IMG/VR virus record: IMGVR_UViG_2541047748_000013 | Length of the DNA: 41,069 nt | Origin: a virus | Taxonomy: Duplodnaviria; Heunggongvirae; Uroviricota; Caudoviricetes | Direction: 5' to 3' (one strand) | Part shown: positions 6,514 through 31,803 of the stretch, piece after piece | Numbering within the stretch: the stretch's first letter is position 1 | Layout of the letters: the number at the start of each line of letters is the position of its first letter | Notes under the pieces: model-generated | What the model was told of the DNA's origin: nothing | Database searches by the model: none | Seen by the model: only the letters and a program-made list of their open reading frames with translations | Position numbers and translations under genes: made by a program

Positions 6514-6617
6514 GTTAAATCTCCAGATAGTCGCAGCACCCGTTGCGCCGCATATCTGGTTATTCTATTACCTGAAAAACCACATATGGATAGAAAGACT
6601 GTAAATACGAATAGATA

Positions 6618-6632
6618 TTACCTTTCAGGTAA
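6618..6632. promoter_or_regulatory. TTACC-N5-GGTAA dyad (putative phage repressor operator) upstream of the antirepressor island
   Basis: Perfect dyad TTACCTTTCAGGTAA; identical copy at 25793-25807. Confidence 0.5.
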
Positions 6633-6671
6633 TTTGCAAAACGTGCTGGATAGCAAACAAATTATTTGCTA

Positions 6672-6687
6672 CTGTATAAATATACAG
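6672..6687. promoter_or_regulatory. LexA (SOS) box
   Basis: CTGTATAAATATACAG matches CTGT-N8-ACAG with AT-rich spacer; overlaps a TATAAAT -10-like element 22 nt upstream of the 6709 start codon. Confidence 0.7.
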
Positions 6688-6708
6688 TTATTGCATGGAG
6701 AAGATAAG

Positions 6709-6966
6709 ATGCAGCAGTATCACTATCCACTGGAAGACGGATTTACCGAAAGGATTCACACGCCGGGAGGCGTCAGGTCACTGGTGGAGGGATCGCACTT
6801 GATGAAATTACTCCGGGATCTCGATAAGGATGGATTTAATGTCGATGGCCCACTTGCCGAACTGACTGCACTGATTAACTACGTCACCAGCTCACAGATG
6901 TCTATGCAGGATCTGCAAACACATCTCGACTATTGTGCCGAACAATTACGAAAACAAACCAGATAA
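6709..6966 (+). CDS. Small protein homologous to the C-terminal domain of the downstream antirepressor
   Basis: 86 aa; GGAG RBS 8 nt upstream; aligns by eye with the Ant C-terminus (LMKLLRDLDKDGFNVDGPLAELT / LMNLLNQLQEDGHDVSGAAAELT; QDLQTHLDY / RDIQTHAEY). Confidence 0.6.
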   Translation: MQQYHYPLEDGFTERIHTPGGVRSLVEGSHLMKLLRDLDKDGFNVDGPLAELTALINYVTSSQMSMQDLQTHLDYCAEQLRKQTR

Positions 6967-6997
6967 GATTTGAAATTACCAATAGGAGTGCTTATAT

Positions 6998-7012
6998 TTA
7001 CCTTTGCGGTAA
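6998..7012. promoter_or_regulatory. TTACC-N5-GGTAA dyad inside a larger hairpin between the ant-like gene and ant
   Basis: TTACCTTTGCGGTAA flanked by inverted repeat AGGAGTGC...GCACTCCT. Confidence 0.45.
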
Positions 7013-7103
7013 ATTTACATCGCACTCCTCTTGTGCCATAGTAATCGGGCACTGGCAAAATCCAGTGCCGGGATTGGCGTCCCGGGTTACTAAGTGGCGC
7101 ATA

Positions 7104-7125
7104 CCACGCCAGACGTGGTTTTTTT
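7104..7125 (+). terminator. Intrinsic terminator upstream of ant
   Basis: CCACG ccaga CGTGG followed by T7 run. Confidence 0.55.
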
Positions 7126-7281
7126 ATGCGTTAAGCACAGCTATATCCGAATTATGGTGGGCTGGGCAGGGGTCCGAAAGGACGCCGGTACCACTTAGGC
7201 CGGTACGCCAACCTTGTCCAGTTCACCACCAGTAATTGGCGTTGCGGTGGTGATTAAAATCACTAAGTGGAGATAACCACC

Positions 7282-7992
7282 ATGGCTAATGCTCAAACTG
7301 CCATCTTCAAATTTGAATCTGTTAACCCTATCCGTTCCATCATTATCGATGGCCAACCATGGTTTGTAGCCCAAGACGTTTGTAGTGCGCTGCGTATCCA
7401 AAACGTCACCCAAGCACTTGAAAAACTGGATGATGATGAAAGGTCTATGTTCAACATAGGGCATGAACATCGTGCAATTTTTGACAGCCGAGTAAAAGAG
7501 ATCAACATTATCTCCGAGTCAGGCCTCTACACACTGATCCTCCGCTGCCGCGACGCAGTGACACCAGGCACTATCCCCTACCGCTTTCGTAAATGGGTTA
7601 CAGGTGAGGTTCTTCCTCAGATCCGCCGCACCGGAAGCTACATTAAAAACTCGCTCCCGCAGGAAGAACGCATAAAGATGGTTGCCGACCAGGTAGCCAA
7701 CGCCACAGCATCAGCAGTAATGCAGGCGATGAAGATAGAGAACAAAACCTACAGCGCCCCGCTGAAGCCCGGCTACCGCAGTTTGATTCACTCGCCGTCG
7801 GGTGTTCTCGGCCTGACGGAGAACTCACTGCTGATGAATTTGCTGAACCAGTTACAGGAAGACGGGCATGACGTATCGGGCGCGGCGGCGGAGCTGACCA
7901 CCATGTTCTGCTACATCGTCGGTGTGAGCAAATGCCTGCGTGATATCCAGACCCACGCGGAGTACATCAACGACAAGGCAGGGTTCTTCTGA
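7282..7992 (+). CDS. ant: Antirepressor, Bro-N/KilA-N N-terminal domain with Ant-type C-terminal domain
   Basis: Bro-N-like N-terminus (FVAQDVCSAL...SGLYTLILRCRD); GGAG RBS 9 nt upstream of ATG at 7282. Confidence 0.8.
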   Translation: MANAQTAIFKFESVNPIRSIIIDGQPWFVAQDVCSALRIQNVTQALEKLDDDERSMFNIGHEHRAIFDSRVKEINIISESGLYTLILRCRDAVTPGTIPYRFRKWVTGEVLPQIRRTGSYIKNSLPQEERIKMVADQVANATASAVMQAMKIENKTYSAPLKPGYRSLIHSPSGVLGLTENSLLMNLLNQLQEDGHDVSGAAAELTTMFCYIVGVSKCLRDIQTHAEYINDKAGFF

Positions 7993-8077
7993 CGAGCGGC
8001 GGCACATGGATGTGCCTACAATTATCAATAATTGTTTACACTCGTTGCAGTTAAAAGCATTATACTCATGTTTAAAA

Positions 8078-8092
8078 TTACCCGATTGGTAA
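8078..8092. promoter_or_regulatory. TTACC-N5-GGTAA dyad overlapping the promoter region of the moron operon
   Basis: TTACCCGATTGGTAA 22 nt upstream of the 8114 start; TAAAAT -10-like hexamer abuts it. Confidence 0.45.
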
Positions 8093-8113
8093 AGTCGATT
8101 GGTTGAGGTTCAT

Positions 8114-8440
8114 ATGAGCAGAAGATATGTCAAGGAGCTGGCTATAGAGTCTGGCACCCCTTTGGGTATCGTTCCTGGCTCCAACTATGCCAAGGCTTTA
8201 AACCGAGACTCTGTCGTCAAAGTTATATCAAGAGACATGAATATGGTCGGAGACGATCTCAGACGGTCAGAAAATCGTGTTTATGCTGAATATATAGTAA
8301 AGAACGGAAAAAAAATTGCAGCGCCTGCTGGCGGAAAATGGGCAATAGTGACAGGGAAAAACTCAAATGCAAGAGGAAAACCAGAAGCTAAAGGAATGTC
8401 CTTCGACAAATATGCAAAAATCTATTGGGCAACCAAGTGA
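8114..8440 (+). CDS. Hypothetical protein (moron operon gene 1)
   Basis: ATG with GAGG RBS 5-6 nt upstream; 109 aa basic protein, no family recognised. Confidence 0.45.
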   Translation: MSRRYVKELAIESGTPLGIVPGSNYAKALNRDSVVKVISRDMNMVGDDLRRSENRVYAEYIVKNGKKIAAPAGGKWAIVTGKNSNARGKPEAKGMSFDKYAKIYWATK

Positions 8441-8915
8441 TAACGAAGAAACTGAGTTCGAGGAAGTTGAGGAAGGGCTAAGTAACGAGATCATTCAACA
8501 CCCAGATGCCTTCACAAGAGTTCTTGATCGCCCTGAAATTCAGGAGATAGTTGTCGCTCACCATGCGTTTCAGGGTCCGCTTCCTCCCCCCTATCTGCTT
8601 CGCGGGTATCAGGATATTTTACCTGATGCCCCCGAACGCATCTTCCAGCTGACGGAGAAGGAGTTTGCTCACCGCCAGAAAATGGAGGAAAAGGCACTTG
8701 ACGGGGCTATTAATAGAGATAAACGTGGGCAGTGGTTTGGCCTGAGTGCAACTATTTTTACAGTAGCTTGTGCAACATTATTAGGTTTAACAGGTCATGA
8801 AGTTCTAGCTGGCACAGTGATCGGTACAGTTGTTGCAGTGGCTGGTATTTTCGTTCTTAGACAAAAACCAAGCATCAAGAAGAAATCTGAAGACAACAAA
8901 CCTGAAGAAAAGTAA
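8367..8915 (+). CDS. DUF2335-like membrane protein (moron operon gene 2)
   Basis: Acidic N-terminus, HHAFQGPLPPPYLL motif, two C-terminal hydrophobic helices; overlaps previous ORF, start uncertain (8367 or 8412). Confidence 0.5.
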   Translation: MQEENQKLKECPSTNMQKSIGQPSDNEETEFEEVEEGLSNEIIQHPDAFTRVLDRPEIQEIVVAHHAFQGPLPPPYLLRGYQDILPDAPERIFQLTEKEFAHRQKMEEKALDGAINRDKRGQWFGLSATIFTVACATLLGLTGHEVLAGTVIGTVVAVAGIFVLRQKPSIKKKSEDNKPEEK

Positions 8916-8936
8916 GCCCGCGCTGCGGGCTTTTTT
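8916..8936 (+). terminator. Intrinsic terminator after the moron operon
   Basis: GCCCGC gct GCGGGC followed by T6. Confidence 0.6.
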
Positions 8937-8967
8937 GTGGACGAAACAAAAGTCAGTGCTACACTCA

Positions 8968-8995
8968 TTGACGCCACATTGAGGTGGCTTATAGA
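8968..8995 (+). promoter_or_regulatory. Putative sigma70 promoter for the small secreted-peptide gene
   Basis: TTGACG, 16-bp spacer, TATAGA. Confidence 0.35.
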
Positions 8996-9008
8996 TGGAA
9001 ATGTCACA

Positions 9009-9170
9009 ATGAAAAAAGCATTTGCTGCACTGTTCGTTTTGTTGTCTCTGGTAGCTTCAACTCAGGCCTTTGCCGGTCGTTGTCAGCACGACAGCGATAC
9101 CGCCGCTGACGGCTCCCGCTGCGGTGGGCGTTCTGCGGATTCCCGCCCGGGCGGCGGTGGCATTCGTTAA
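9009..9170 (+). CDS. Small secreted Cys-containing peptide (53 aa precursor)
   Basis: Signal peptide MKKAFAALFVLLSLVASTQAFA; own promoter and flanking terminators; internal Met of listed ORF 8937-9170. Confidence 0.4.
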   Translation: MKKAFAALFVLLSLVASTQAFAGRCQHDSDTAADGSRCGGRSADSRPGGGGIR

Positions 9171-9192
9171 AAACAAGGCCGCGAAAGCGGCC
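9171..9192. terminator. Bidirectional intrinsic terminator between convergent genes
   Basis: GGCCGC gaaa GCGGCC with A-run upstream and T-rich tract downstream. Confidence 0.55.
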
Positions 9193-9193
9193 T

Positions 9194-9205
9194 GTGACAT
9201 GTCAC
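9194..9205. repeat. 12-bp perfect palindrome GTGACATGTCAC, copy 1 of 3; contains the TGA stop of the 9202-9498 gene
   Basis: Exact 12-mer also at 26777-26788 and 29042-29053, each next to a terminator hairpin. Confidence 0.6.
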
Positions 9206-9498
9206 GTTCCTTTTCTGAATGATAGCCGTTCGAAAAATGATGACATTCCACCGCAGACAATAGCAAAGATGATCCCACCAAAGAAGAGAAGGCCAGCCTG
9301 CCACCACTCCCACCGCCATACATCCACAGCACCAACCATACCAACAATCGCTCCAACAAATGGAATATAGCTCACGATGAAAGCAATGGGGGCTGCAATT
9401 ATCCAGTGCAATCCCCACCATGATTCAAGCCCAGCCATAATTGCTGCCAACTGAAAAAGGCCAACGACGATATAAACAATGAATCCTATCGCTTGCAT
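9202..9498 (-). CDS. Small integral membrane protein (3 TM), superinfection-exclusion-like position
   Basis: 98 aa, Trp-rich hydrophobic helices, directly downstream of the ejection-protein genes. Confidence 0.5.
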   Translation of the reverse strand: MQAIGFIVYIVVGLFQLAAIMAGLESWWGLHWIIAAPIAFIVSYIPFVGAIVGMVGAVDVWRWEWWQAGLLFFGGIIFAIVCGGMSSFFERLSFRKGT

Positions 9499-9510
9499 GT
9501 AGTCACCTAT

Positions 9511-9684
9511 TTACCCAGTAAAAATCAGAGGCCTCCCCTCAATAAGGCTTGCAACAAGAACTATTCCCTGCACAACAAAGATGAACCAGCAAATAGCTTG
9601 AGTCTGAGGGTTAAGAAAATATTTGTAGCGGTCAATAAATAACAACCCACCAGAAATTATCACACTCAAAATAATTAAAAACAC
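9511..9684 (-). CDS. Possible small hydrophobic protein (GTG start)
   Basis: 57-codon ORF not in the supplied track; AAGGAAG RBS 4-5 nt upstream of GTG; two hydrophobic segments. Confidence 0.3.
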   Translation of the reverse strand: MFLIILSVIISGGLLFIDRYKYFLNPQTQAICWFIFVVQGIVLVASLIEGRPLIFTG

Positions 9685-9693
9685 AACACTTCC

Positions 9694-17525: not shown

Positions 17526-19996
17526 CAGAATCCCCCAACAGTAAGGCGAGGAATAACGGCAAGAACAGACAGCGGCAACGGGTCAAGCTGACGGATTTTT
17601 ACACGTCCGTTTTTGCCCCAGTTACTGTCCAGTTTCACTTCTACTTTTCCGGTAGCGTCATCAACAGGATCATCGTAGAACTCGAATTCACGCTGTGGAT
17701 ATTCGTACCATTTACCGCCGGGCGTAGTCGCCCAGATGCCGCGACTGGCATTCACAACCAGAGTAACAGACGGGATCACCTGTTTTTTGTCCAGCAGCGT
17801 TTCCTGTCCGTTAATGTTGATATCCAGTGTTTCGAATTCAGCAGTTATTGGCAGGCCGATGTGCACTACAGCCCCCGGAGATTCCAGCGTGACGGCACCT
17901 CCGGAAACCACTTTCTGTGGTTCCACGTTCGCATCAGAGAGGATGTTTACGGTCTGGCCTTCAAGATGAGACAAGCCGCCAAATGTCCGGCGCGCCATCT
18001 GCCAGTTCGTGGTGGCCACATTCCTGAGGGATGGCGGGACGTTCCTGTTAGCACGAACCACTACAGCGGTATTGCTGGTTACAGAAATAATGTCGCAACG
18101 TAATTCTTTTGACACCTCATCGCCAGTATCAGGATCAGTTCCGGTATAAGGGAACTGTAGTTGCGCGCCGACATCACTACTGGTGAAGTACGCACCACCA
18201 GAAACACTGATTGTATATTCCGCGCGGTAATCCCATTCGCCAGAACCACCAGTGATGATCATCGTTCTGTCAGACGTATTTCTTCCATCATAGCTAAGGC
18301 CAGAATCAACAAAGAAAGCATCTTCATCGCTGGTAAATAAACGGCTGGACAGTCGCTCGATGTATCTCACTGTTTGCCCGTTAACGGTTCGGTTAATGAC
18401 GAAATACACCGCATCTTCATTGCCTTCGCTGATACTGCATGTGCTTTCATATTTTCCGGTACTGGACTGTGGTGCCCATGCAAAAACCTGTTGATCACGC
18501 AAATAGGTCATCACCAGTAATTTACCGTCATCACGAATGCAGAAGGCGCTGGAGTAAGGGACTATCGAGAAGCACCAGTCAACAATGCTGTGCTTCTGAA
18601 AAAGATGATTGGCAAGGATAGTAAGGTCGTTCCCCTGATAGCCGTCAACATCGAATGAGTAGGCCAGATCACGGACAACACTGCCTTTCTCCTGGACGAA
18701 CAGAGCAATATTCGCCACGGCAATTGGTGGGACATTGCTCGAGCCATTTGATCCCTGAGAGCTGAATGCAAATGATGATGGGGTAAGCACTTTGTTCTGG
18801 TCGCCAGTGATGACGTACTCACCTCCGGAAGTCAGCGCCACCAGCGAACCAACATCAATCAGGTGACGGATCTCATTAACCTGACGCCCGGCATAGGTGT
18901 AGATAATTCTGTCGTCATCCTGCGTAGGATTGCTTTTGCCAAAATCCTTATAATCCCCGGTACGGCTGGCCCAGATAGTCTGAGGAAACGCAGTCGATGC
19001 GGCGAAGTAAAGACGTTGTTGATAATAAACAACAGTGCCAGGATAACCATTAACACTGTTCCAGGCATATTTAGCCCATTTATAGCTGGCATTATCCTCG
19101 CCCACGACCTGCGAAGGGATATAGGAAATCACCTCGGCAGTTGCAGTAGTTCCATTTGCAGCAGTGATACGGGCAATGCCAAAACCACTGTGCAGATATT
19201 CCCACTCAATGCCAGTATCATCATCACCGGATCCGCCCCAGCCATCCCATGATGTGCCTTCTGTATGCGAAGGGCGCAAAGTACCTGTTTTGCCTGCTGT
19301 AACGGCGCGATAGTAGTTACTGTCTGCACGGCGAATATCGCCAATCGACGTACTCTTACTGGTTTCCCATACCGGCACAGAATCCACTGCAGGCTGTTCC
19401 AGATAGAACAATTTGCCTACCTGCTCCGCGCCAAAAATAGAGGCGCTTGCCGTTAGCGTAATTGTCCCGGTGCTGGCGCTGGCATAAACCGTCACTGACT
19501 CGTCAATATTGATATCTTCAAATGGCCCGTTCTTCGTTACCACATCAACCAGTTGCCAGTTGTCATGCGCATAGCGGCGCAACTCTTTCGGCGGGTATGC
19601 CGGATGAACCAGCGTAAGCACGTCTGCGCTTTGCGTGAATTTAATTCGGAACAGATCGGCTTCAGTATATGGCGTGGAAATTTCATAAATAACATTGCTG
19701 CTGTTCAGCACCAACGCACCATCTTTGATAACGCGCATGTACTGGTGTCCGAACTCCAGAGCATAAGTCTGAACCGTCGAGAACTGGAACGGGATCAGGC
19801 GGCATTTCCGATTTGGGTATTTGGCGGCACCGACAAAACGCGTACCAGGTCGATTCTCAACTCCGCCATACTGCCGCACGATAAAGTTATCGCACTTGCG
19901 CAATGCCACCTGGTACTTCGCCATGTCAATACGACCGTACAACGACGGTCCAATCTCACCACCGGCAAAGCTGGGCTGGATCCAACTGATAGCCAT
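17525..19996 (-). CDS. Tail tubular protein B-like (nozzle)
   Basis: 823 aa, follows a 201-aa tail tubular A-like gene; size and order as T7 gp11/gp12. Confidence 0.55.
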   Translation of the reverse strand: MAISWIQPSFAGGEIGPSLYGRIDMAKYQVALRKCDNFIVRQYGGVENRPGTRFVGAAKYPNRKCRLIPFQFSTVQTYALEFGHQYMRVIKDGALVLNSSNVIYEISTPYTEADLFRIKFTQSADVLTLVHPAYPPKELRRYAHDNWQLVDVVTKNGPFEDINIDESVTVYASASTGTITLTASASIFGAEQVGKLFYLEQPAVDSVPVWETSKSTSIGDIRRADSNYYRAVTAGKTGTLRPSHTEGTSWDGWGGSGDDDTGIEWEYLHSGFGIARITAANGTTATAEVISYIPSQVVGEDNASYKWAKYAWNSVNGYPGTVVYYQQRLYFAASTAFPQTIWASRTGDYKDFGKSNPTQDDDRIIYTYAGRQVNEIRHLIDVGSLVALTSGGEYVITGDQNKVLTPSSFAFSSQGSNGSSNVPPIAVANIALFVQEKGSVVRDLAYSFDVDGYQGNDLTILANHLFQKHSIVDWCFSIVPYSSAFCIRDDGKLLVMTYLRDQQVFAWAPQSSTGKYESTCSISEGNEDAVYFVINRTVNGQTVRYIERLSSRLFTSDEDAFFVDSGLSYDGRNTSDRTMIITGGSGEWDYRAEYTISVSGGAYFTSSDVGAQLQFPYTGTDPDTGDEVSKELRCDIISVTSNTAVVVRANRNVPPSLRNVATTNWQMARRTFGGLSHLEGQTVNILSDANVEPQKVVSGGAVTLESPGAVVHIGLPITAEFETLDININGQETLLDKKQVIPSVTLVVNASRGIWATTPGGKWYEYPQREFEFYDDPVDDATGKVEVKLDSNWGKNGRVKIRQLDPLPLSVLAVIPRLTVGGF

Positions 19997-22810: not shown

Positions 22811-23512
22811 TTATTTGCCATAGAGCACTTCGGCCGCACTACGCTGGCCTTCATTACTACCGGTGACCATGCCATCTTCAGACATCGCCTTTCCGATTTT
22901 CACGAACGTTTTGACCAGATCAGGGTGATTACCCAGCCCGGTGGTGTTCAGATATTCTTTGAGTTCAGGTGTCCCGAACTGGTCAAGCGCACGCTGTGCG
23001 GCGCTAAGGTTAGAAATCAACTTGTCGCCACCGATTTCTTTGTCAGCTTTTACATCAGCAGCCCACTGCTCGGTTGTTTTCTGCCAGGCTTCTGCCTGGC
23101 GCTGCTGCACACCTGCCAGAATCTTCGGATAAGCATCAACCAGCTTTTGCGCTTGCTCGTTGGTCAGGTTTAGTTCTCGCGCCACCGGCTCGAATTCCTT
23201 CAACGCTTCTGTATCCAGCTCTACGCCTTCGGCAGCCTGAAACTCGTACTTTTCAGGCGCACCCTCTGGTTTATCGCCGTCCTTTTTTTCATCCTGCTTA
23301 TCGTTTTCAGGCTTTTTGTCATCAGCAGGTTTATCGCCATCAGCAACAGGTTGTGGCTTATCACCTTCCTGTTGTGATGGATCACCAACTGGAGCAGGGT
23401 TATCACCTGCAGGCGCTGACGGTTCTGACGCAGCCGGAGCTGCTCCACCATCGACTGGTTGCTCATTGCAAAGACGGCGATACAGCAAACGCTCAAATAA
23501 ATTCATGATCAC
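22811..23512 (-). CDS. Scaffolding protein
   Basis: 233 aa, acidic, Pro/Asp/Lys-rich low-complexity N-terminal half, between portal and capsid. Confidence 0.65.
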   Translation of the reverse strand: MIMNLFERLLYRRLCNEQPVDGGAAPAASEPSAPAGDNPAPVGDPSQQEGDKPQPVADGDKPADDKKPENDKQDEKKDGDKPEGAPEKYEFQAAEGVELDTEALKEFEPVARELNLTNEQAQKLVDAYPKILAGVQQRQAEAWQKTTEQWAADVKADKEIGGDKLISNLSAAQRALDQFGTPELKEYLNTTGLGNHPDLVKTFVKIGKAMSEDGMVTGSNEGQRSAAEVLYGK

Positions 23513-23805
23513 TCCTGTTCACTGGCCTCTTTGGCCATCTTCAAATACTGTTCAGGGCAATGCGCCATAACGCGCTGAAACAGTTCCAGCGCCAGATTGC
23601 GTTGCCCCTCATTAAATGCCATTGCCATAGCGTCCATCGGTGAGATAGCGGAAAACACACGGCCTTTCTCCAGCACCGACCAGACAACGCGACGCCCCTG
23701 TTCACTGCTCATGACAAAGCGAATGTCATCAATTTCACGCTGTGCCATGTCACGTTGCTTACGGGCGTTTTCTTCTTTCAGTTGATCATCTTCGTAATCT
23801 GTCAT
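23509..23805 (-). CDS. Hypothetical head-assembly protein
   Basis: 98 aa, 4-nt overlaps with portal and scaffold genes. Confidence 0.5.
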   Translation of the reverse strand: MTDYEDDQLKEENARKQRDMAQREIDDIRFVMSSEQGRRVVWSVLEKGRVFSAISPMDAMAMAFNEGQRNLALELFQRVMAHCPEQYLKMAKEASEQE

Positions 23806-25481
23806 TGTGATTGCCCACCCTGACCACTAACTGCATTCGCCATAGCTGACAAAACACTCGGATCCGAAGTTTTAGCTTCGCTTAGCGTCTTGGCACCCTG
23901 TGCCGCCGCCATCCCCATCGCCATCATTTGTTGCTGCTGTTGTTGCTGTGCCCGTTGCTGGCGAGCCTGCTCAACCTGTTCCTGCGGAACAATGACGGTT
24001 GGAGACACTCCGGACATATCAGCGAATGCATCGATCGCCTGATCAACGTTGAGTTTGTCGAGAGCTTCTGGTTTCGCTTGCGCAAGTTGACCAATGAAGT
24101 TAACCGTGGACGCCAGACTGGACAGGCCGATAGACTTCTGCGCCTGAGCCATGACGGAAATGTATTCGACCTTCAGGGGCATACCTTCCATCACGTCTGG
24201 CGGTGGCGGCAGCATGTTTTTACGCACCATCATCGAGAAAGAGCGGTCAATGAGAGGATTAAGACATTCGTCGTTCAGACGCTCCAGAACCGGCCCCAAC
24301 ATCAGAAGTTTTTCTTCTTTCATTTCGATCACCGCTTCAACAGGCATCGAGCGGGTATTGATGTTCTGCAACATCATGAACAGATCGACAAAGTAGGCGC
24401 TGTTAATGATTTGACGAGTGTCCTGAATGTCTGCCACCAAATCTGCTGTACTGGGGTTAACCAGATAAGCAGGCCTGAAACCATCCTGACCAGTAATCTG
24501 ATCGATATACGTGATGTCGCCAGGAAGAAGGGAGGCACGCTGATTCTTGAGGGAAGTCGGAGCAACCATCGGCGGATTGGTGGCTTTATCAATCAACTGC
24601 GACTTGCGCTTCTGAAGAAGCTGCAATGCCTTAACAGATCCAAGCGCCAGCATACCCGGGCATGATGATCCATAAACATCTTCGCCGTTAACTTCCCAGC
24701 GCGGAGCCATAATTGGAAACTCATCGAATCCGGACTCACGCAACAACTTGTCGTTATCGCCACCAACCTCGTAATAAACCGATTTGAATGGCTTGTTCTT
24801 GCTATCCAGCTTCGATGTATCGCGGTCAATGTTCGGGTAAACCGAATGCATCACTTCAATCCACTTCTCGTAGGTGCCGCTTTCCCACATGCTTTTTACG
24901 GATTCGCTGACGTTATTTAGTCCGAACTCCTGAACAAGCTGACGAACAGTCATAGAGAACTTGCGAAAACAGGTGTCCACACTGCCACGAGGTGAGTTAG
25001 CCAGGTAGTAACTGCCTATCGGGAATGGCATTGTGCGAATGATGTCCTCGTCATCCTCCAGCACTGCCATTGCACCAGTGCTGTATGTGCCGAGGCTTCC
25101 GTATAACTGCGGCAGCGACTGATAGAGATTCGACTTATTGAACATATCGTTCATGCGGTTCTGCACCGCCTCAAGCCACAACTTAACAGGGCCATAATCC
25201 ATCATTTCAGGATCTGGCGTAGCCAGGCGAAACCACGGACGCGCGGGGCTTGTGATGCCTGACATCATGCCGCTGGCGAGAGTGCGCGCCGCCATAGTCC
25301 CGGTCGAATCAATAATGCGTGTATTGCGTCGATCGTTACGGTTAACCTCAGAAGTCAGAAAGCGGGAACCACGCGGGTTGATGTAATCACTCAACTCGCG
25401 CCAGTGCGGCTCGAACGACTGACGCTCGCTTTCAAGTTGTGCGAACTGTTTGTTCAATCGCTCTTTAGTTGTTTCCGCCAT
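23802..25481 (-). CDS. Portal (head-to-tail connector) protein
   Basis: 559 aa, first large gene after terminase; Gln/Ala/Met-rich C-terminus reminiscent of T7 gp8; GGAG RBS. Confidence 0.75.
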   Translation of the reverse strand: MAETTKERLNKQFAQLESERQSFEPHWRELSDYINPRGSRFLTSEVNRNDRRNTRIIDSTGTMAARTLASGMMSGITSPARPWFRLATPDPEMMDYGPVKLWLEAVQNRMNDMFNKSNLYQSLPQLYGSLGTYSTGAMAVLEDDEDIIRTMPFPIGSYYLANSPRGSVDTCFRKFSMTVRQLVQEFGLNNVSESVKSMWESGTYEKWIEVMHSVYPNIDRDTSKLDSKNKPFKSVYYEVGGDNDKLLRESGFDEFPIMAPRWEVNGEDVYGSSCPGMLALGSVKALQLLQKRKSQLIDKATNPPMVAPTSLKNQRASLLPGDITYIDQITGQDGFRPAYLVNPSTADLVADIQDTRQIINSAYFVDLFMMLQNINTRSMPVEAVIEMKEEKLLMLGPVLERLNDECLNPLIDRSFSMMVRKNMLPPPPDVMEGMPLKVEYISVMAQAQKSIGLSSLASTVNFIGQLAQAKPEALDKLNVDQAIDAFADMSGVSPTVIVPQEQVEQARQQRAQQQQQQQMMAMGMAAAQGAKTLSEAKTSDPSVLSAMANAVSGQGGQSQ

Positions 25482-25495
25482 TTCAATGACTCCGG

Positions 25496-25702
25496 TTACT
25501 GACCAAGCAGCGTTTTACCGCTGGTATTAGCGGTTGATGTGTCGCCCTGAGAACCGGTAAGCAGCGTAGAACTACGACCAGCAGCAACGCGACGGCGACG
25601 TGTTTCTTCGTCGCGGGCATCAACAACGGCGGCATCCTGCTCCTGTGGTGCTGCCTGAACTTCTGGTGTTGCAGGCACTGATGGTGAGCTACCCATGCAC
25701 AT
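25496..25702 (-). CDS. Small hydrophilic hypothetical protein
   Basis: 68 aa, GGAG RBS 9 nt upstream, stop 12 nt before portal start; preferred over overlapping 25483-25722 frame. Confidence 0.45.
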   Translation of the reverse strand: MCMGSSPSVPATPEVQAAPQEQDAAVVDARDEETRRRRVAAGRSSTLLTGSQGDTSTANTSGKTLLGQ

Positions 25703-25770
25703 ATCAATGACTCCGTACGCAATTAAATTATTACCAATTTAACCACATATGATTTATTTATCGTAGATAG

Positions 25771-25807
25771 TTGACATTTAACGCACAAATTATTACCTTT
25801 CAGGTAA
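25771..25807 (+). promoter_or_regulatory. Putative plus-strand promoter (TTGACA) with TTACC-N5-GGTAA dyad upstream of tRNA-Arg
   Basis: TTGACA at 25771-25776; dyad TTACCTTTCAGGTAA at 25793-25807 identical to the 6618 site. Confidence 0.4.
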
Positions 25808-26129: not shown

Positions 26130-26206
26130 GTGGCATTAGCTCAGTTGGACAGAGCAACCGCCTTCTAAGCGGTTGGTCGCAGGTTCGAATCCTGCATGCC
26201 ACGCCA
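26130..26206 (+). tRNA. tRNA-Arg (anticodon UCU)
   Basis: Manual cloverleaf: acceptor GTGGCAT/ATGCCAC, D-stem GCTC/GAGC, anticodon stem ACCGC/GCGGT with loop CTTCTAA, T-arm GCAGG-TTCGAAT-CCTGC, discriminator G, encoded CCA. Confidence 0.9.
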
Positions 26207-26249: not shown

Positions 26250-26291
26250 GGCGGTGATGGTTTCCCTTGAAGGACTATCACCGCCCTTTTT
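26250..26291 (+). terminator. Intrinsic terminator downstream of tRNA-Arg
   Basis: GGCGGTGAT...ATCACCGCC stem followed by CTTTTT. Confidence 0.55.
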
Positions 26292-26400
26292 ACAGCAGGA
26301 CGCCATTGCGATGACTTCATGCTGTAAACCAGTACAGCCACGGAAGGCATAACTCATTGCTTCCGGTTCGCCGGGCATTTTTTTAAGGTGAGATTAGACT

Positions 26401-26772: not shown

Positions 26773-26776
26773 CACC

Positions 26777-26788
26777 GTGACATGTCAC
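26777..26788. repeat. 12-bp palindrome GTGACATGTCAC, copy 2 of 3
   Basis: 4 nt after the Gp49-like stop, immediately followed by a terminator hairpin. Confidence 0.6.
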
Positions 26789-26791
26789 AAA

Positions 26792-26819
26792 CAGCCAGCC
26801 GATGAGCTGGCTTTGTTTT
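26792..26819 (+). terminator. Intrinsic terminator after the Gp49-like gene
   Basis: AGCCAGC cgatga GCTGGCT followed by TTGTTTT. Confidence 0.55.
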
Positions 26820-26862
26820 ATCCTCACCAGAGGATATCTCCGTCATTATCCCCGCTAACGGA

Positions 26863-28338
26863 TTAAGCATAGGGATCATAATCTGTAATGGCCTTGCCTT
26901 GCTGGTTCTGCTGCCCGGGAATTCGCAGACGCTTAGACACAGGGAACGCAAACGTCAGCAGTAGCGCATCGCCTTTACCCGGCGAACGCCCAAGCCGCTC
27001 CTTGATATCTTCCTTCGGTTCGATAACGATTTTACCGTCCACACGAACTTTGTACTCTGCCGCCGACAGGTCGTCTGCAGTTTCCTGGTCATCCAGCATG
27101 CCGCCGAGCCTCAGCCATGTCTTGCATGAGTTGAACATCTCCCCACGCTTGTTGAGCATCTGCGGGTCAGTAGACGCGCCACCGAACGGAACAAGTTGCC
27201 ATGTACGTCCCCAGCCATCACCGATTGACTTCAAACCGGTTCCGTAACCGAAGTCGATGAACACCGCGTCAGCCTGATACTGGTCTTCAAAGTCAGCGAT
27301 ACGCTTCGCCATAATCAGATCGTCGGTAGTCTTGTTGCCAGTCCACAGCACCTTACTGTGTAGCCCCTGCCGCAGGTATATCACCGCGTCATCAACGCCT
27401 GAATATGCCGGGTCAACACCGATTATCACCGGAGCATGTGCAACCTGCGCAGCGGTAACCACCCGCTTCATGGCCTCGTCTGTAAGGCCTGTTGGGATAA
27501 ACTGGAGTTCTGACGCGTCAGGGAAGATCCCCCGCACGCGGACCTTCACGAAGTCGCTGTCTTCGCCGTAGTCGTCAACCCATTTCTGCAGCTGCTGCTT
27601 GTTTGTGCCTTCCACGGTGCGGCTGTCAATCTGCGCGCACTTCCAGCGGTGCTTGTACTTGCGGAAGCATTCGCGGAAGCGCCCGGTGTTACGCGTCGGG
27701 TTCCCAAACGCCACCCAGATAATTTCCGTGTCTTCGTCCGTAAGCGCACCCTCAGCAACTTCCCACACCAGATCCGCAATGTTCGACGCTTCATCGAATA
27801 CCACGATGATGCGTTTGCGCTCGTTGTGTAGTCCGGCGAATGCCTCGGTGTTGTGCTCAGACCAGGGTATTGCGTCAGCCCGCCACCGCTTGTCGTGCCC
27901 TAGGTCATTGCTGTACATCGCGGTAGCGGTACAGGTAAACCAGTCTTTCGTGATAGCAAGGTTCGACCACTTGATAATTTCCGGCCAGGTCTTCGTTCGT
28001 AGCTGGTTGTCGGTGTTGGCGGTCACCACGACCTTACAATCCTCGCAAGTGGACATGCCCCAGTTGATCAGCATTGAGATGAATGCGGATTTACCAATAC
28101 CGTGACCAGAAGCGCGTGCCAGCATAAGCGGCTGATAGCGCGTCTCTGGATTCTGCAGGTGATCACGTATCTCTCGGAACGCATCAGCCTGCCACTGACG
28201 TGGGCCGGTGGCATGTGCCAGTTCAGTCCCCTCTTCCCCCCACGGGAACGCATAGAGGGCATAGCCAAGCGGATCGTGAGTGAACCCTGCAATATCCTCG
28301 ATTAACTGCTCTTCAGGAGATAACGCTGTATCTGTCAC
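26863..28338 (-). CDS. Terminase large subunit
   Basis: 491 aa; N-terminal ATPase-like region (GHGIGKSAF Walker A-like) and C-terminal nuclease-like region; overlaps small subunit stop. Confidence 0.85.
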   Translation of the reverse strand: MTDTALSPEEQLIEDIAGFTHDPLGYALYAFPWGEEGTELAHATGPRQWQADAFREIRDHLQNPETRYQPLMLARASGHGIGKSAFISMLINWGMSTCEDCKVVVTANTDNQLRTKTWPEIIKWSNLAITKDWFTCTATAMYSNDLGHDKRWRADAIPWSEHNTEAFAGLHNERKRIIVVFDEASNIADLVWEVAEGALTDEDTEIIWVAFGNPTRNTGRFRECFRKYKHRWKCAQIDSRTVEGTNKQQLQKWVDDYGEDSDFVKVRVRGIFPDASELQFIPTGLTDEAMKRVVTAAQVAHAPVIIGVDPAYSGVDDAVIYLRQGLHSKVLWTGNKTTDDLIMAKRIADFEDQYQADAVFIDFGYGTGLKSIGDGWGRTWQLVPFGGASTDPQMLNKRGEMFNSCKTWLRLGGMLDDQETADDLSAAEYKVRVDGKIVIEPKEDIKERLGRSPGKGDALLLTFAFPVSKRLRIPGQQNQQGKAITDYDPYA

Positions 28339-28931
28339 TGATTGCCATCCTGACGTTCTTTCAGTCTCTTCCTGGCTGCCGCTATGCGATCAGCAATTGT
28401 CACATTCACATTAACATCCAGGCGTTCTTTGAATGCGTTGACGTCGACGTGCTTACCAATCAGTTCGAGGTTCTTCACCTTGTCAGGCCATTTAATTTTT
28501 TTGAGGATTGTCTCTATCGAATCCTCGTTCATGTTCATGATGGTCGATGACAGATCAAAGCCACTAAGCGTAGTGCGCCAGATTTTCGGCCACTCGCGGA
28601 TTGGCTTAAGGCTCCCATCGTCGTTGAGGATGTCGATCACGTCCATCTGGTCGATCTCCACCAGGCGCATGAGAACGTAATCAGCACTGACGCGCATTCG
28701 TTTGTTGCGCTCCTCCATCAACTCGGCAATCCGTTTTTGAATGCGTTCATCGCGCATCATGACACTGGCTTTAACTGCCGCTGTATTTGGGGAGAATCCT
28801 GCGTTAATCGCTGCCTGAGTCTGGTTTTCAGGCGTTTTGATGTATGACTGGCAATAAGCCTCCTGCATTGCTGTTAGTGGCTTAAATTGCGTTGATTTGC
28901 GTTTATAGGCTTTAGGTTCAGCAGGCATCAT
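28335..28931 (-). CDS. Terminase small subunit
   Basis: About 198 aa from internal Met pair (MMPAEP); immediately upstream of large subunit; listed ORF start at 29009 judged too far upstream. Confidence 0.7.
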   Translation of the reverse strand: MMPAEPKAYKRKSTQFKPLTAMQEAYCQSYIKTPENQTQAAINAGFSPNTAAVKASVMMRDERIQKRIAELMEERNKRMRVSADYVLMRLVEIDQMDVIDILNDDGSLKPIREWPKIWRTTLSGFDLSSTIMNMNEDSIETILKKIKWPDKVKNLELIGKHVDVNAFKERLDVNVNVTIADRIAAARKRLKERQDGNQ

Positions 28932-28948
28932 AACCACCGTGGTAATAG

Positions 28949-28963
28949 TTACCGTTGTGGTAA
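28949..28963. promoter_or_regulatory. TTACC-N5-GGTAA dyad cluster just upstream of the terminase small subunit start
   Basis: TTACCGTTGTGGTAA flanked by GGTAATAGTTACC and GGTAATAGTACC. Confidence 0.45.
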
Positions 28964-28971
28964 TAGTACCA

Positions 28972-29000
28972 TGCAAAATAAAGCCGCCATAGTTGGCGGC
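28972..29000 (-). terminator. Intrinsic terminator (minus orientation) in front of the packaging/late operon
   Basis: Minus-strand hairpin GCCGCC aactat GGCGGC followed by TTTATTTTG. Confidence 0.5.
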
Positions 29001-29041
29001 AGTATTCAAACCCCATCAAATTCATCATGCATAATCTACTC

Positions 29042-29053
29042 GTGACATGTCAC
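29042..29053. repeat. 12-bp palindrome GTGACATGTCAC, copy 3 of 3; contains the TGA stop of the 29050-29391 gene
   Basis: Exact 12-mer; about 40 nt upstream (minus direction) of the terminator hairpin. Confidence 0.6.
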
Positions 29054-29391
29054 ACTATTAATTTCGTTTCATGCCAGCCTTTAGTCACCCAGCATTGCGA
29101 GTCACCATCACACGGGCATGAATTCACAGGAACTCTCTCGCCGCACTTACCGCAACGTTTTCTGCTGATCGATTTTATACGCCCGTGCACGCGTGCATCA
29201 TCCTGGCGGATCAGTAACGCTATATACTCACCAAATTCGTAAGGCGCACGCCCGGGGCGACGCGTGGCACAGTTACGCTCCAGCATTTCAATTTCCTGAG
29301 CATCAAGCACAATTTCCAGCTTACGCACACCAGATGCAGCTTGTCTGGCTCTCTGAGCGGCTTTGCGCTCTGCTGCTGATTTAGCCATCAA
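29050..29391 (-). CDS. Zn-ribbon protein (C-terminal CxxC...CPC), candidate late-gene regulator
   Basis: 113 aa; basic Ala/Arg-rich N-terminus and Cys4 cluster CGKCG...CPCDG; last gene before late terminator and terminase. Confidence 0.5.
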   Translation of the reverse strand: MMAKSAAERKAAQRARQAASGVRKLEIVLDAQEIEMLERNCATRRPGRAPYEFGEYIALLIRQDDARVHGRIKSISRKRCGKCGERVPVNSCPCDGDSQCWVTKGWHETKLIV

Positions 29392-29662
29392 TATTCACCT
29401 TTATCGCGAACACCTTTACCGGTTTATCGCCGAAGTGGGGATGTGTGATTGTCTTGATTTCATATCCGTCATACGGAATATCAATTCTGCGGCTGGAATC
29501 GTCGCGCTTCGGATATCCCTTTGTGATAATCAGGCGGTCATACTCGCGGAACATAATTCGCTTATTCCAGTAGTCATTACACAGGCGATACTCTTCCGTT
29601 TTCTCTCCGCGAATCATGGCATCGAAGTATTCACCTTTAACGGCAAGTTGCAGGTTAGCCAC
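29381..29662 (-). CDS. DUF3850/ASCH-like (PUA-fold) phage protein
   Basis: 93 aa; recalled resemblance (VKGEYFDAMIRGEKTEEYR). Confidence 0.5.
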   Translation of the reverse strand: MANLQLAVKGEYFDAMIRGEKTEEYRLCNDYWNKRIMFREYDRLIITKGYPKRDDSSRRIDIPYDGYEIKTITHPHFGDKPVKVFAIKVNIDG

Positions 29663-29745
29663 GACCTTCCTCCTTTGGCTTGTGAATTTGTATCGTCATG
29701 CCGCTTTGAGTGGTGACTACAACGACAGAACCAGGCTGAAGACTG

Positions 29746-29943
29746 TTAAGATTGAATGCTTCGTAAAACGAAGCCAAGGCCAGCGCTTTTTTTATTCTTT
29801 CGGTTCCACCAACGCCATCCATTGCTACAGGCTACACTGACAATCCACTGTCCACTCCTGTAAGCCATATAAAACCAGATGAGCAAAACCTGAATGAATG
29901 CTATCCAGTCAATAATCGTATATTTCGCGAAGGAGACCATCAA
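29746..29943 (-). CDS. Possible small membrane protein
   Basis: 65 aa, hydrophobic N-terminal helix, start abuts upstream gene stop; weak support. Confidence 0.3.
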   Translation of the reverse strand: MMVSFAKYTIIDWIAFIQVLLIWFYMAYRSGQWIVSVACSNGWRWWNRKNKKSAGLGFVLRSIQS

Positions 29944-30512
29944 TTAACCTCCTGCGGCGGTTCCGGTAGAGGCATCCAGTACAAGGCGTTCCCTAACCAC
30001 GATAAAGTGCCGTCGCTCAACTCCACGTATTCCCCTTGTACCTGTCCTGCCATATACTCGCCGTGCTTTGAATAAATTAAAATCCAATCATCTTGAGCGG
30101 GCATTCGCTCACTACAGCTTATCCAACCATCCGGAGTTACCGGATAGTTGCCCGACAGCTCGTTCAACTTGTAAGTTTGGCTTACAGGTTCGGCTTCCAG
30201 TTCTGCAATGCGCTTCTCTGCAGCTTCCAGCTCAACGCGCAGCTTCCCTACCGTTAGCGCAATTTCCTCGTTCTCCTGGTCGCGGCGTTTGATGTATTGC
30301 TGGTTTCTTTCCCGTTCATCCAGCAGCGCCAGCACGGTTTCTGGTCCGGTCAGAAATTTGAAGGCGTTGAGCGCATCAATATCCACACCGTAATCCTTAA
30401 GTTCCTGTTCACTTAACAAATCATCATCAACTGGCAACATTAACAGGCGTTCCATTGCCGGAATTGCACGTTCTGCCGCCTCACGCAGTGCCTGATAGTC
30501 AATCTTGTTCAC
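29940..30512 (-). CDS. DUF551-domain protein (coiled-coil N-terminus)
   Basis: C-terminal WISCSERMPAQDDWILIY...ALYWMPLPEPP motif; start placed at GTG with AAGGGAG RBS 7 nt upstream instead of the listed ATG at 30593. Confidence 0.55.
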   Translation of the reverse strand: MNKIDYQALREAAERAIPAMERLLMLPVDDDLLSEQELKDYGVDIDALNAFKFLTGPETVLALLDERERNQQYIKRRDQENEEIALTVGKLRVELEAAEKRIAELEAEPVSQTYKLNELSGNYPVTPDGWISCSERMPAQDDWILIYSKHGEYMAGQVQGEYVELSDGTLSWLGNALYWMPLPEPPQEVN

Positions 30513-30804
30513 TGGTTGTCTCCCTTGCAGGGCTTTCGAATGTATCAAACTCAAACAACTTAACCACGTCATCAAACAGGACATAATCGCCATCAGGATC
30601 TTCAGTCATGTCAGCGCCACACTCCTGACCGAACGAGTCACAACCATCCATATCAAGCTCGTATCGCTTCAGGTTTGCGATATTTGATAAATTCAGCGCC
30701 AGTACAGCTAGGGCATAAACCTCTTCGGCGGTATACCCTGCGCCATGCCCATACATTTCAATGCGGGATATGATTTCTTCTACCCGTTGTTTTGTGATCG
30801 TCAT
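30499..30804 (-). CDS. Acidic hypothetical protein
   Basis: 101 aa, contiguous in nin-like operon. Confidence 0.5.
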   Translation of the reverse strand: MTITKQRVEEIISRIEMYGHGAGYTAEEVYALAVLALNLSNIANLKRYELDMDGCDSFGQECGADMTEDPDGDYVLFDDVVKLFEFDTFESPARETTSEQD

Positions 30805-31280
30805 TTTTGCTCACCTCCATGTTCTTCCAGAAAAATACGCATAGCCTCAAGCATCTCTTCGGTGTCATACGGAGACAGCTTGTCACGCAGGATGTGTTCA
30901 ATGCTGTTAATGAACTTTCGGATTGCTTTGCGTTCAATTTCAGTCAGGAAAGCATCGGTGGCTGGGGTGTCTGATTGCAGAGACTTTGCGCGATAGTCAT
31001 TCCACCCTCTTGCATACATGGGATTAACTCGCACTCCATCTTTTACGCAATATGCCTGCCCTCCACGGTTGATAACCTTGATTTCGTCCATAGCGCCAGA
31101 CTTCAGCCCCGCATTCTCTGCCGCCAGCGCATTAGCACGCACCAGTTGCACTTCCAGTTGCGTTGCCAAATCGCTGATCAGCTTTGCCACACTGCGCATA
31201 TCAACGGCACCACATTCTGCTTTCAGTTCCGAAGCCATCTCATGCCCGGCGGCAACTAACCCTTTGATATTACTTTCCAT
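30801..31280 (-). CDS. Hypothetical protein (possibly Ead/Ea22-like)
   Basis: 159 aa, coiled-coil N-terminus; 4-nt overlap with next gene. Confidence 0.5.
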   Translation of the reverse strand: MESNIKGLVAAGHEMASELKAECGAVDMRSVAKLISDLATQLEVQLVRANALAAENAGLKSGAMDEIKVINRGGQAYCVKDGVRVNPMYARGWNDYRAKSLQSDTPATDAFLTEIERKAIRKFINSIEHILRDKLSPYDTEEMLEAMRIFLEEHGGEQK

Positions 31281-31341
31281 CTTTACCCTCGCTTATCCAC
31301 ATAACTTATTGATTACATTGATAACTAAAAAGATCGTCGAT

Positions 31342-31686
31342 TCAGAACTCTTCGATGTTCCAGCCACCACCTGCTTTCTTTGGTTTAACCGTTACCCCGA
31401 TGATTCGGAACGGATACTGATCTGCGGCGACTTTGGTTTTCACCCTGGCGTCGTCGGTCCAGAAACCTTTCACTTCGTGCAGTTCCATCTCTCCGGTGGC
31501 GAGCATCACAGCGAAATCTGGCGTATAGAACGTGTTGTCAGCTAACCGCAGCTTGATACCCTCGAATCGATACCAGGCGATTTCCCCTGCACGTTTACGC
31601 AGCTCAAGGTGCTGGCAATACGCAGATTCAGTTTTGTTCATCTGGCCTGTTTTGAGTCGACCAAGAGCCTGTATCTGTTTTCTCAT
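31342..31686 (-). CDS. DUF1064-like phage protein (possible nuclease fold)
   Basis: 114 aa; own promoter-like element and operator dyad overlapping the RBS. Confidence 0.5.
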   Translation of the reverse strand: MRKQIQALGRLKTGQMNKTESAYCQHLELRKRAGEIAWYRFEGIKLRLADNTFYTPDFAVMLATGEMELHEVKGFWTDDARVKTKVAADQYPFRIIGVTVKPKKAGGGWNIEEF

Positions 31687-31689
31687 GAT

Positions 31690-31704
31690 TTACCTCTGAG
31701 GTAA
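31690..31704. promoter_or_regulatory. TTACC-N5-GGTAA dyad overlapping the Shine-Dalgarno of the DUF1064-like gene
   Basis: TTACCTCTGAGGTAA 4 nt from the start codon; the GAGG of the right arm is the only RBS-like element. Confidence 0.5.
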
Positions 31705-31751
31705 TTAAAAACCACATAAGACATGAAATCAATAGAGTTTATAATATTTTG

Positions 31752-31766
31752 TTACCTAACAGGTAA
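31752..31766. promoter_or_regulatory. TTACC-N5-GGTAA dyad between replication and nin-like genes
   Basis: TTACCTAACAGGTAA. Confidence 0.45.
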
Positions 31767-31803
31767 TTATCGAGGCGTAAAAAAATGCGCTATCGCGCTG
31801 GTA

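Follow-up and report, generated by a model that had tools for sequence, protein, structure and literature searches.

A shared promoter-operator architecture with a second palindrome at predicted repressor-controlled operons of an epsilon15-like Escherichia coli prophage

The control systems closest to the one described here are those of phages epsilon15 and SPC32H. The repressor of SPC32H, Rep, binds palindromic DNA sites in tetrameric form and is split by an antirepressor, Ant, which is itself a tetramer (PMC9638917). In the RefSeq record of epsilon15 (NC_004775), dyads of the form ATTACC-N5-GGTAAT are labelled 'protein_bind: repressor' before terS, before the small gene ahead of the portal (gp3), between gene 19 and the tail fibre gene and before gene 43, and three further repressor sites are placed beside the repressor gene, P_L included. 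Here we describe three control regions, cassettes C1, C2 and C3, in a viral DNA stretch of 41,069 nucleotides (IMG/VR record IMGVR_UViG_2541047748_000013; this whole stretch is referred to as the window). Each of them combines the dyad TTACC-N5-GGTAA with a second short motif, which reads CATATGTGGTT on the minus (coding) strand. The epsilon15 record, in which IHF and RNase III sites are also annotated, has nothing at this motif. We conclude from the sequence that the three cassettes are very probably Rep-operated promoters of the minus strand.

The window phage is an epsilon15-like temperate podophage of the genus Uetakevirus, present as a prophage, and is ~97–98% identical over long stretches to the E. 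coli phages vB_EcoP_ZX5, TL-2011b, phiv142-3 and phiV10. Its virion, lysis, replication and nin-like genes are on the minus strand, and the repressor gene, the early-left operon and a few accessory genes are on the plus strand. The dyad network is already known as an epsilon15 prediction, and the Rep and Ant proteins are known from SPC32H; the window is a new E. coli member of this group. It resembles epsilon15 and SPC32H (PDB 5D50/5D4Z) in having the same dyad at the same positions (terS, the pre-portal gene, ant/tail fibre, the nin-like genes, P_L and O_R), a homologous Rep and small Ant, and a LexA box before ant. It differs in its host, in its endosialidase tail spike and in its Rep, as the Rep proteins of the E. 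coli and Salmonella groups are only ~42% identical. The rep gene (34109..34693, plus strand) encodes an SPC32H/epsilon15-type repressor with two helix-turn-helix (HTH) regions (PDB 5D50_A, E = 4e-42), which Pfam placed at residues 106–147 (HTH_3) and, more weakly, at residues 21–61 (YdaS-type). The small antirepressor gene ant (6709..6966, plus strand; 85 aa; PDB 5D50_E, E = 4e-47) specifies a protein nearly identical to that of SPC32H, and an exact LexA box, TACTGTATAAATATACAGT (6670–6688; 0.03 expected), lies 20 nt upstream of it. The published ZX5 paper took the Bro-N protein as the antirepressor and mentioned neither the small ant gene, the LexA box nor the operators.

TTACC-N5-GGTAA occurs in 10 exact copies in the window against 0.03 expected, starting at 6618, 6998, 8078, 25793, 28949, 31690, 31752, 34039, 34751 and 34813, and three more sites carry one mismatch (28931, 33654 and 33991). 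An excess of the same dyad was also observed in phiV10, in Tyrion (Enterobacter) and in BUCT711 (Klebsiella). The window counterparts of the sites labelled in epsilon15 are 28949, 25793, 6618, 31752 and 34751/34813, and the dyad positions at C1, C2, C3, terS and P_L agree among epsilon15, SPC32H, phiV10, Tyrion and BUCT711. Operators flank rep on both sides, as O_R sites and as P_L dyads. On these grounds TTACC-N5-GGTAA is the predicted operator of the SPC32H-type prophage repressor Rep, which presumably binds at each of these sites.

An earlier note on this DNA, made from the letters alone, had pointed to an arrangement shared by the three regions: a TTACC half-site or full site, a motif, a spacer and a full dyad. 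All of these elements were found in place. C1 comprises TTACC at 6568–6572, AACCACATATG at 6578–6588 and the dyad at 6618–6632; C2 has TTACC at 25731–25735, AACCACATATG at 25741–25751 and the dyad at 25793–25807; and C3 has a full dyad at 31690–31704, AACCACATAAG at 31710–31720 and a second dyad at 31752–31766. The gap between the motif and the distal dyad is 29 bp in C1, 41 bp in C2 and 31 bp in C3. Read along the minus strand, each cassette has the same order: the distal operator, a predicted weak sigma-70 promoter, CATATGTGGTT, five bases, and the proximal Rep half-site or full operator beside the –10. The dyads at 6618 and 25793 were correctly noted to be identical, and the identity extends over 17 bp (TATTACCTTTCAGGTAA). 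Similarity is not confined to the dyad: AACCACATAWG, the second motif read on the plus strand, is present in three exact copies against 0.05 expected in the window, all of them within the three named regions, so that the cassette claim survives the test which the earlier note had set for it. Beyond that note, there are six more exact dyads, the three one-mismatch sites, and second-motif copies at 3148–3161, 33635–33648 and, in degenerate form, 34794–34807.

In C1, the distal Rep operator TTACCTTTCAGGTAA (6618..6632) lies between the divergent tail-spike and ant genes and corresponds to the epsilon15 repressor site 19895–19911. The 14-mer that contains the second motif, ATCCATATGTGGTT (6578..6591, minus strand), has CATAT and GGTT invariant in six lineages. 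It is followed by the proximal half-site GGTAA (6568–6572) and by the predicted –10 hexamer TAGAAT (6567..6562, minus strand); the predicted –35, TCCATA (6590..6585, minus strand), is separated from this –10 by 17 nt. In this part of C1, the sequence GGTAATAGAAT is unchanged across the six lineages. An inverted second copy of the motif, CATATCTGGTT, is present on the plus strand at 6551–6561, 16 bp from the C1 copy, so that the pair brackets the half-site and the –10; it was seen in the E. coli lineage only. Downstream of C1 is the tail-spike gene (3394–6513, minus strand). Control of the ant island by C1, as the earlier note had it, is not borne out, as the asymmetry of C1 faces the tail spike and ant has the LexA box of its own described above.

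The distal Rep operator of C2 (25793..25807) corresponds to the epsilon15 repressor site 2931–2947. The minus-strand core of this cassette consists of the 14-mer AATCATATGTGGTT (25754..25741), AAATT, GGTAA (25735..25731) and the predicted –10 TAATTT (25730..25725). A 28-nt block, ATATGTGGTTAAATTGGTAATAATTTAA, is constant in six lineages while its flanks vary. Downstream is the head operon, whose first gene is at 25496–25702 on the minus strand. C2 also has a plus-strand face: its distal dyad overlaps the –10-like TACCTT (25794–25799) of a promoter-like site, TTGACA (25771–25776)-17-TACCTT, which is directed towards tRNA-Arg (26130–26206) and a gene of the N4 gp49/Sf6 gp66 family. GTCAA, which is TTGAC on the other strand, is invariant in the six lineages. 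The suggestion that C2 controls the tRNA island may thus apply to this overlapping site, while the main target of the cassette appears to be the head operon.

The distal Rep operator of C3 (31752..31766) is located just downstream, in the sense of the minus strand, of the replication-operon terminator, and corresponds to the epsilon15 repressor site 35906–35922. The predicted minus-strand promoter (31690..31732) has its –35, TTGATT, at 31732..31727 and its –10, TTTAAT, at 31709..31704, with CTTATGTGGTT (31720..31710) in the spacer. The proximal full operator (31704..31690) contains the Shine-Dalgarno sequence GAGG of the DUF1064 gene, whose ATG is at 31686. This gene (31342–31686, minus strand) is the first of the nin-like operon, and the assignment of C3 to the nin-like genes in the earlier note agrees with the position and predicted orientation of the cassette. 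The C3 layout is kept in six lineages.

Although Rep is only 42% identical between the E. coli and Salmonella groups, the positions of the cassettes are shared by six lineages whose hosts belong to four genera (Escherichia, Salmonella, Enterobacter and Klebsiella), and this comparison with related prophages bears out their conservation. The distances between the elements and to the start codons are constant across the genera. Among 85 distinct IMG/VR cassettes, the dyad-to-motif distance is constant, at 44 or 56 bp, and the hexamer after GGTAA keeps T1, A2 and T6 throughout while its other positions vary. This hexamer is TAGAAT, TAAACT, TACAAT or TAAAAT in the 49 distinct cassettes of C1 type, and TAATTT in the 36 of C2 type, where ATATGTGGTTAAATTGGTAATAATTTAA is invariant. 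A four-way alignment showed a mean column identity of 57%, with scattered invariant columns only. Because the cassettes are unlike one another outside the short motifs, they are not recent copies. The duplicated promoter-operator module of the earlier note stands, as far as the sequence tells, as a shared promoter-operator architecture and falls as a recent duplication, each cassette being kept at its own position in the six lineages.

The –10 hexamer beside the half-site and the conservation up to the start codon argue for a minus-strand orientation, with the tail-spike, head and nin-like operons as the main targets. Plus-strand promoters within the cassettes are conserved only at the TTGACA site of C2; a plus-strand candidate in C3, AAGACA-16-TATAAT (31718–31745), was rejected, as it would read antisense into the replication genes and is unconserved in epsilon15. 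Antitermination of the lambda Q type was likewise rejected. It requires a terminator ahead of the first gene, and the 38 nt (C2) and 23 nt (C3) from the motif to the start codon contain none and are too few to accommodate one.

The promoter geometry of C3 is shared with three other predicted promoters of the window. At all four, 16–17 nt separate a –35 from a –10 whose final T also serves as the opening T of a dyad. In the P_L region (34751..34827, plus strand), a distal dyad (34751–34765) is followed by the –35 TTGACA (34785–34790), the –10 AATCAT (34808–34813) and a proximal dyad (34813–34827). The other two are plus-strand promoters, TTGAAA-17-TATATT (6970–6998) and TTAAAA-16-TAAAAT (8051–8078), whose –10 hexamers are abutted by the dyads 6998..7012 and 8078..8092, respectively. 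The two dyads of P_L have a spacing of 62 bp, as have those of C3, in the window, phiV10, epsilon15 and Tyrion; the spacings in BUCT711 are 62 and 63 bp. The distance from the proximal pseudo-dyad to the distal dyad is also 62 bp at C2, and 50 bp at C1. Downstream of the promoter at 6970–6998 we observed an Rfam isrK small RNA (7049–7125), a C4 antisense RNA (7150–7233) and then a Bro-N open reading frame (7267–7992); the stretch 6970–7992 resembles the immI c4-ant module of P1/P7, here under a Rep operator.

Elsewhere in the window, O_R has three Rep sites between the Cro-like gene and rep (33991..34053), at 33991 (one mismatch), 34022 (two mismatches) and 34039 (exact). A pair of sites 18 bp apart (28931..28963, minus strand) lies past the terminator that follows the gp49 homologue, ahead of the start of terS, and corresponds to the epsilon15 repressor site 12–27; its member at 28931 reads TTACC-N5-GGTTA on the minus strand (one mismatch), and that at 28949 is exact. 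The epsilon15 record is without marks at the proximal half-sites, at the O_R dyads, at the second C3 dyad and at a dyad (24704) belonging to a further site, C4.

The second motif forms one arm, the better preserved of the two, of a 14-bp palindrome, AWYCA-N4-TGRWT, which has five matches in the window against 1.09 expected, four of the five being cassette sites. The fifth, AACCAGGTCTGATT (6412–6425), is inside the 5' part of the tail-spike gene, ~90 nt past the start codon, and may be due to chance. Scanning with a position weight matrix (PWM) recovered the 14-mer sites at C1 to C3 and at two additional places, C4 and C5. The C4 14-mer, ATTCATATATGGTT (3148..3161, minus strand), is ahead of the lysis operon (first gene 2683–3087), and its counterpart in phiV10 and Tyrion is a perfect palindrome, AACCATATATGGTT; in the window we found no Rep half-site adjoining C4 and no dyad within 170 bp of it. 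C5 (33609..33668, minus strand) comes after the terminator that follows the Cro-like gene and before the gp40/replication genes. It consists of a one-mismatch dyad (33654–33668), 5 nt, and the perfect-armed palindrome AACCAGATTTGGTT (33635–33648), with a predicted –35, TTGATC, at 33636..33631 and a predicted –10, CAAAAT, at 33614..33609 on the minus strand. This arrangement was also found in phiV10, epsilon15, SPC32H and Tyrion, and perfect palindromes are present at C4 and C5 in several lineages. P_L has a degenerate 14-mer, AACCAGATACGCAT (34794–34807), whose Tyrion counterpart, ATCCATATATGGTT, is 5 nt from its dyad.

At C1, C2, C3, C5 and P_L the 14-mer is exactly 5 bp from a Rep half-site. 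No such neighbour was found at the other exact dyads (6618, 6998, 8078, 25793, 28949, 31752, 34039 and 34751). The 14-mer has a conserved centre, in most cases TATA or TATG, in contrast to the free N5 centre of the Rep operators. Relative to the predicted –10, this centre is at about –19.5 in C3 and P_L, –29.5 in C1 and C2, and –40 in C5. A perfect palindrome, ATTCAGATATGAAT, a 'left-arm' variant of the second motif, was seen in epsilon15 at 33405–33418, between the O_R dyads and the start of the Cro-like gene; its window counterpart, ATTCATATATGAGG, is only partial and lies near the start of rep (~34085–34098). A DnaA box was considered for the motif, as TGTGGTTAA of C2 is one mismatch from TGTGGATAA, and was dismissed by eye because its GTG is unconserved in C1 of epsilon15 and C4 of phiV10. 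Also by eye, the sigma-54, CRP, IHF, Fis, ArcA and CpxR consensus sequences showed no fit to the motif.

From these observations we propose, with about even confidence, that C1, C2 and C3 control three minus-strand lytic units (tail spike, head/portal and nin-like), each cassette having a Rep operator and a site for a second regulator. In the lysogen, one Rep tetramer would bridge the distal and proximal sites and shut the promoter, and the distal operators would also cover adjacent divergent promoters. Upon DNA damage, LexA would release Ant, Ant would disassemble Rep, and the cassettes would open. A second, dimeric regulator would act on the 14-mer. That a protein other than Rep binds there appears to us evenly balanced. 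Its likeliest identity would be the Cro-like HTH protein expressed from P_R, a homologue of gp39 (33724..33954, minus strand; 76 aa; phrog_35, 'transcriptional repressor'), which would then sit on every major lytic promoter but its own; we regard binding by this protein as possible rather than probable. The Cro-like gene is the sole gene between P_R and the first terminator, its product has weak similarity to the N-terminal HTH of Rep, and its homologues were found in the same 37 phage records as Rep.

Extended to the whole phage, and only as a tentative suggestion, the Cro-like protein would have a regulon in which P_L and the replication, nin, head, tail-spike and lysis promoters are read at sites beside Rep operators. 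Three palindrome families would then mark the units of Uetakevirus: the Rep operator at operon starts, AWYCA-N4-TGRWT 5 bp from a Rep half-site, and a third palindrome, GTGACATGTCAC, at operon ends. If so, the layout of the lysis-lysogeny switch would be unlike those of lambda, P22, 186 and P1.

Several observations weigh against a second regulator acting at Rep-operated promoters. At C1, the 50-bp spacing does not correspond to a whole number of helical turns. A generic sigma-70 scan did not flag the minus-strand promoters of C1, C2 and C3, with their –35 elements matching at 3–4 of 6 bases; the –35 hexamers are weak in C1 (TCCATA/TTCATA) and C2 (ATCATA). The 14-mers of C3 and P_L are poor palindromes, with PWM scores below the best shuffled scores. 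The varying position of the 14-mer relative to the –10 fits occlusion and not one geometry of activation. The co-occurrence of the Cro-like protein with the motif carries no information, since both are present in all phages of the genus. Finally, the constant 5-bp distance of the 14-mer from the half-site at C1, C2, C3, C5 and P_L, and the natural variant TTACC-N5-GGTTA at terS (28931), both favour the main rival explanation, which dispenses with a second protein altogether.

According to this rival, which we consider a serious although not a probable one, the 14-mer is an auxiliary, low-affinity Rep site. Two of the four N-terminal HTHs of the tetramer would be placed on the strong dyad or half-site and two on the five-mers AACCA/TGGTT, on the same helical face ~10 bp further on, and CATAT in C1 and C2 would be merely a weak –35 hexamer. 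Indeed, T(C/T)CATA-17 nt-TAnnnT in these two cassettes fits a –35/–10 pair. Both types of site have an ACC...GGT core in common, and the adjoining Rep sites at O_R and terS are 17–18 bp apart centre to centre, near the 19.5 bp measured here. A Rep tetramer whose DNA-binding pairs are drawn from different dimers (PMC9638917) would be suited to such an arrangement. The 14-mer nevertheless behaves differently from an operator in several respects. C4 keeps it with neither an adjoining half-site nor, in the window, a dyad in the vicinity; its half-sites are off by one bp (ACC-N6-GGT compared to ACC-N5-GGT); its centre is conserved where that of a true operator is free; and the eight other exact dyads are without such a neighbour.

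An unlikely alternative is that the motif is an element of activator-dependent middle or late promoters, resembling those served by Lpa of P1, and that the Rep operators add lysogenic silencing only. P1 late genes require Lpa (PMC8198154). The candidates for an activator in the window would be an early protein of the P_L operon, either PerC-like (38682–38981) or of the AlpA family (38324–38572), or the gp49 homologue (29050–29391). The presence of the first two, the occurrence of the motif before the replication, nin, head, tail-spike and lysis operons, and the poor –35 elements of C1 and C2, as in activator-dependent promoters, are consistent with this explanation. In P1 late promoters, however, a –10 without a –35 is accompanied by a palindrome at a constant position of ~–22, and the predicted centres found here, at –19.5, –29.5 and ~–40, spread over 20 bp among the cassettes. 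At P_L and C3 the motif is flanked by a good –35 and a good –10, which is a repressing position. The gp49 homologue in particular is unlikely as the late regulator that binds the motif, since its homologues are present in N15 and in the lambda-like Chlobot, both without the motif. Searches of Pfam and PDB gave no match to it, and its homologues, also found in Vibrio and Yersinia phages and located in an accessory region in Chlobot, are all unnamed.

It is much less likely that the motif acts in RNA, where it would sit at the base of hairpins in the 5' leader, with a role in mRNA stability or processing (RNase III) or in masking start regions. The evidence for this comes mainly from C4. Directly after the C4 motif, and starting at its GGTT, there is a strong predicted hairpin in the lysis-operon leader (3098..3150, minus strand; z = –3.0). 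In epsilon15 a hairpin is kept at the same place although its sequence differs (z = –5.5), and the epsilon15 record annotates this locus as an RNase III site (24755–24817). TATAAT/TATGAT after the C4 motif, considered as a –10, proved to be part of this conserved stem. The C1 motif of the E. coli lineage can also pair with its inverted copy at 6551–6561 (z = –2.7), but this partner is absent from the Salmonella, Enterobacter and Klebsiella lineages, and C2 and C3 fold no more stably than shuffled sequences do (z = –1.3 and –0.7). The best –10 of C1 and C2 is downstream of the motif, which would therefore not be transcribed from that promoter, and the Rfam search there gave no family. An RNA-level role thus fits C4 only.

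That the shared sequences are mere recombination boundaries at mosaic junctions with no regulatory role is highly improbable: variable islands (ant/Bro, tRNA and conversion genes) do abut the cassettes, and a homology block with epsilon15/SPC32H (22847–25807) does stop exactly at the outer edge of the C2 dyad, where the earlier suggestion of a mosaic junction holds, but C1 and C3 are inside such blocks, dyads of this kind are also found on either side of the repressor gene and directly beside –10 hexamers, and the distances between elements and to start codons do not change across genera. The use of cassettes as recombination joints may be a by-product of conserved regulatory DNA.

Turning again to Rep-operated cassettes with a second regulator, we compared this layout with other known systems. 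As in P1, a single repressor would serve many dispersed operators before separate operons, a C4 antisense RNA and an antirepressor-type gene lie under one such operator, and a shared short palindrome beside the –10 marks lytic operons. In contrast to P1, Rep is unrelated to C1 of that phage, the late operons of the window themselves carry repressor sites, and the distance of the palindrome from the –10 is not constant. The Rep dyad is also symmetric, where the operator of P1 is asymmetric. The window resembles lambda in having several operators at the divergent P_R/P_RM and at P_L, a constant distance between paired sites and a small HTH protein as the first P_R product. It differs from lambda in that Rep is not RecA-cleavable and would be removed by an antirepressor, that its site pairs are 62 bp apart around a single promoter, that the late operons are guarded too, and that the putative Cro site is unlike the repressor operator and beside rather than on it. 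A non-cleavable repressor inactivated by a small protein under an SOS box is also known from 186 (Tum) and from Gifsy/Fels-2 (PMC7380047). The antirepressor here belongs to the SPC32H-type family instead, and this likeness concerns the neighbourhood of C1 and not the cassette itself.

We found no annotation or description of the shared cassette architecture (the half-site abutting the –10, the 62/50-bp pairing) or of the second palindrome at six promoters, the primary epsilon15 and SPC32H papers being outside this search. If the assignments are correct, the repressor of Uetakevirus would guard nearly every operon directly, the late ones included, well beyond the immunity region. The 62-bp site pairs around promoters offer a concrete DNA layout on which the tetrameric 'trans' binding seen in the SPC32H Rep structure may be tested. 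The second motif is a precise and cheap lead to a regulator that would order lytic expression in serotype-converting and K1-specific prophages of E. coli, Salmonella, Klebsiella and Enterobacter, a group of which some phages already serve as reporter phages. Should the 14-mer turn out to be an auxiliary Rep site, the gain would be smaller, namely an improved operator model.

The third palindrome, GTGACATGTCAC, was observed in three exact copies (9194–9205, 26777–26788 and 29042–29053) against 0.01 expected. All of them are at the 3' ends of minus-strand operons beside intrinsic terminators: after the last virion gene, after terL, and over the stop codon of the gp49 homologue. The copies at the first two ends are kept in phiV10, epsilon15, SPC32H, Tyrion and BUCT711. 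The copy at the gp49 end is kept in epsilon15, SPC32H and BUCT711; the phiV10 and Tyrion records stop at the gp49 stop codon, which puts this copy out of view there. The palindrome is without a label in the epsilon15 record.

The tail spike (3394–6513) is an endosialidase with the Pfam domains End_beta_propel and End_tail_spike and a Peptidase_S74 chaperone domain, and only its N-terminal part (~6079–6513) is common to phiV10 and epsilon15. From these endosialidase domains, the target of the window phage should therefore be the K1 (polysialic acid) capsule. The left end of the window (1–1162), which is without homology to phiV10 or epsilon15, encodes a glycine-zipper/TraT-like protein (1–516) and a DUF5384 protein (532–1071); lying beyond the lysis genes, it may represent either an accessory module or flanking host DNA.

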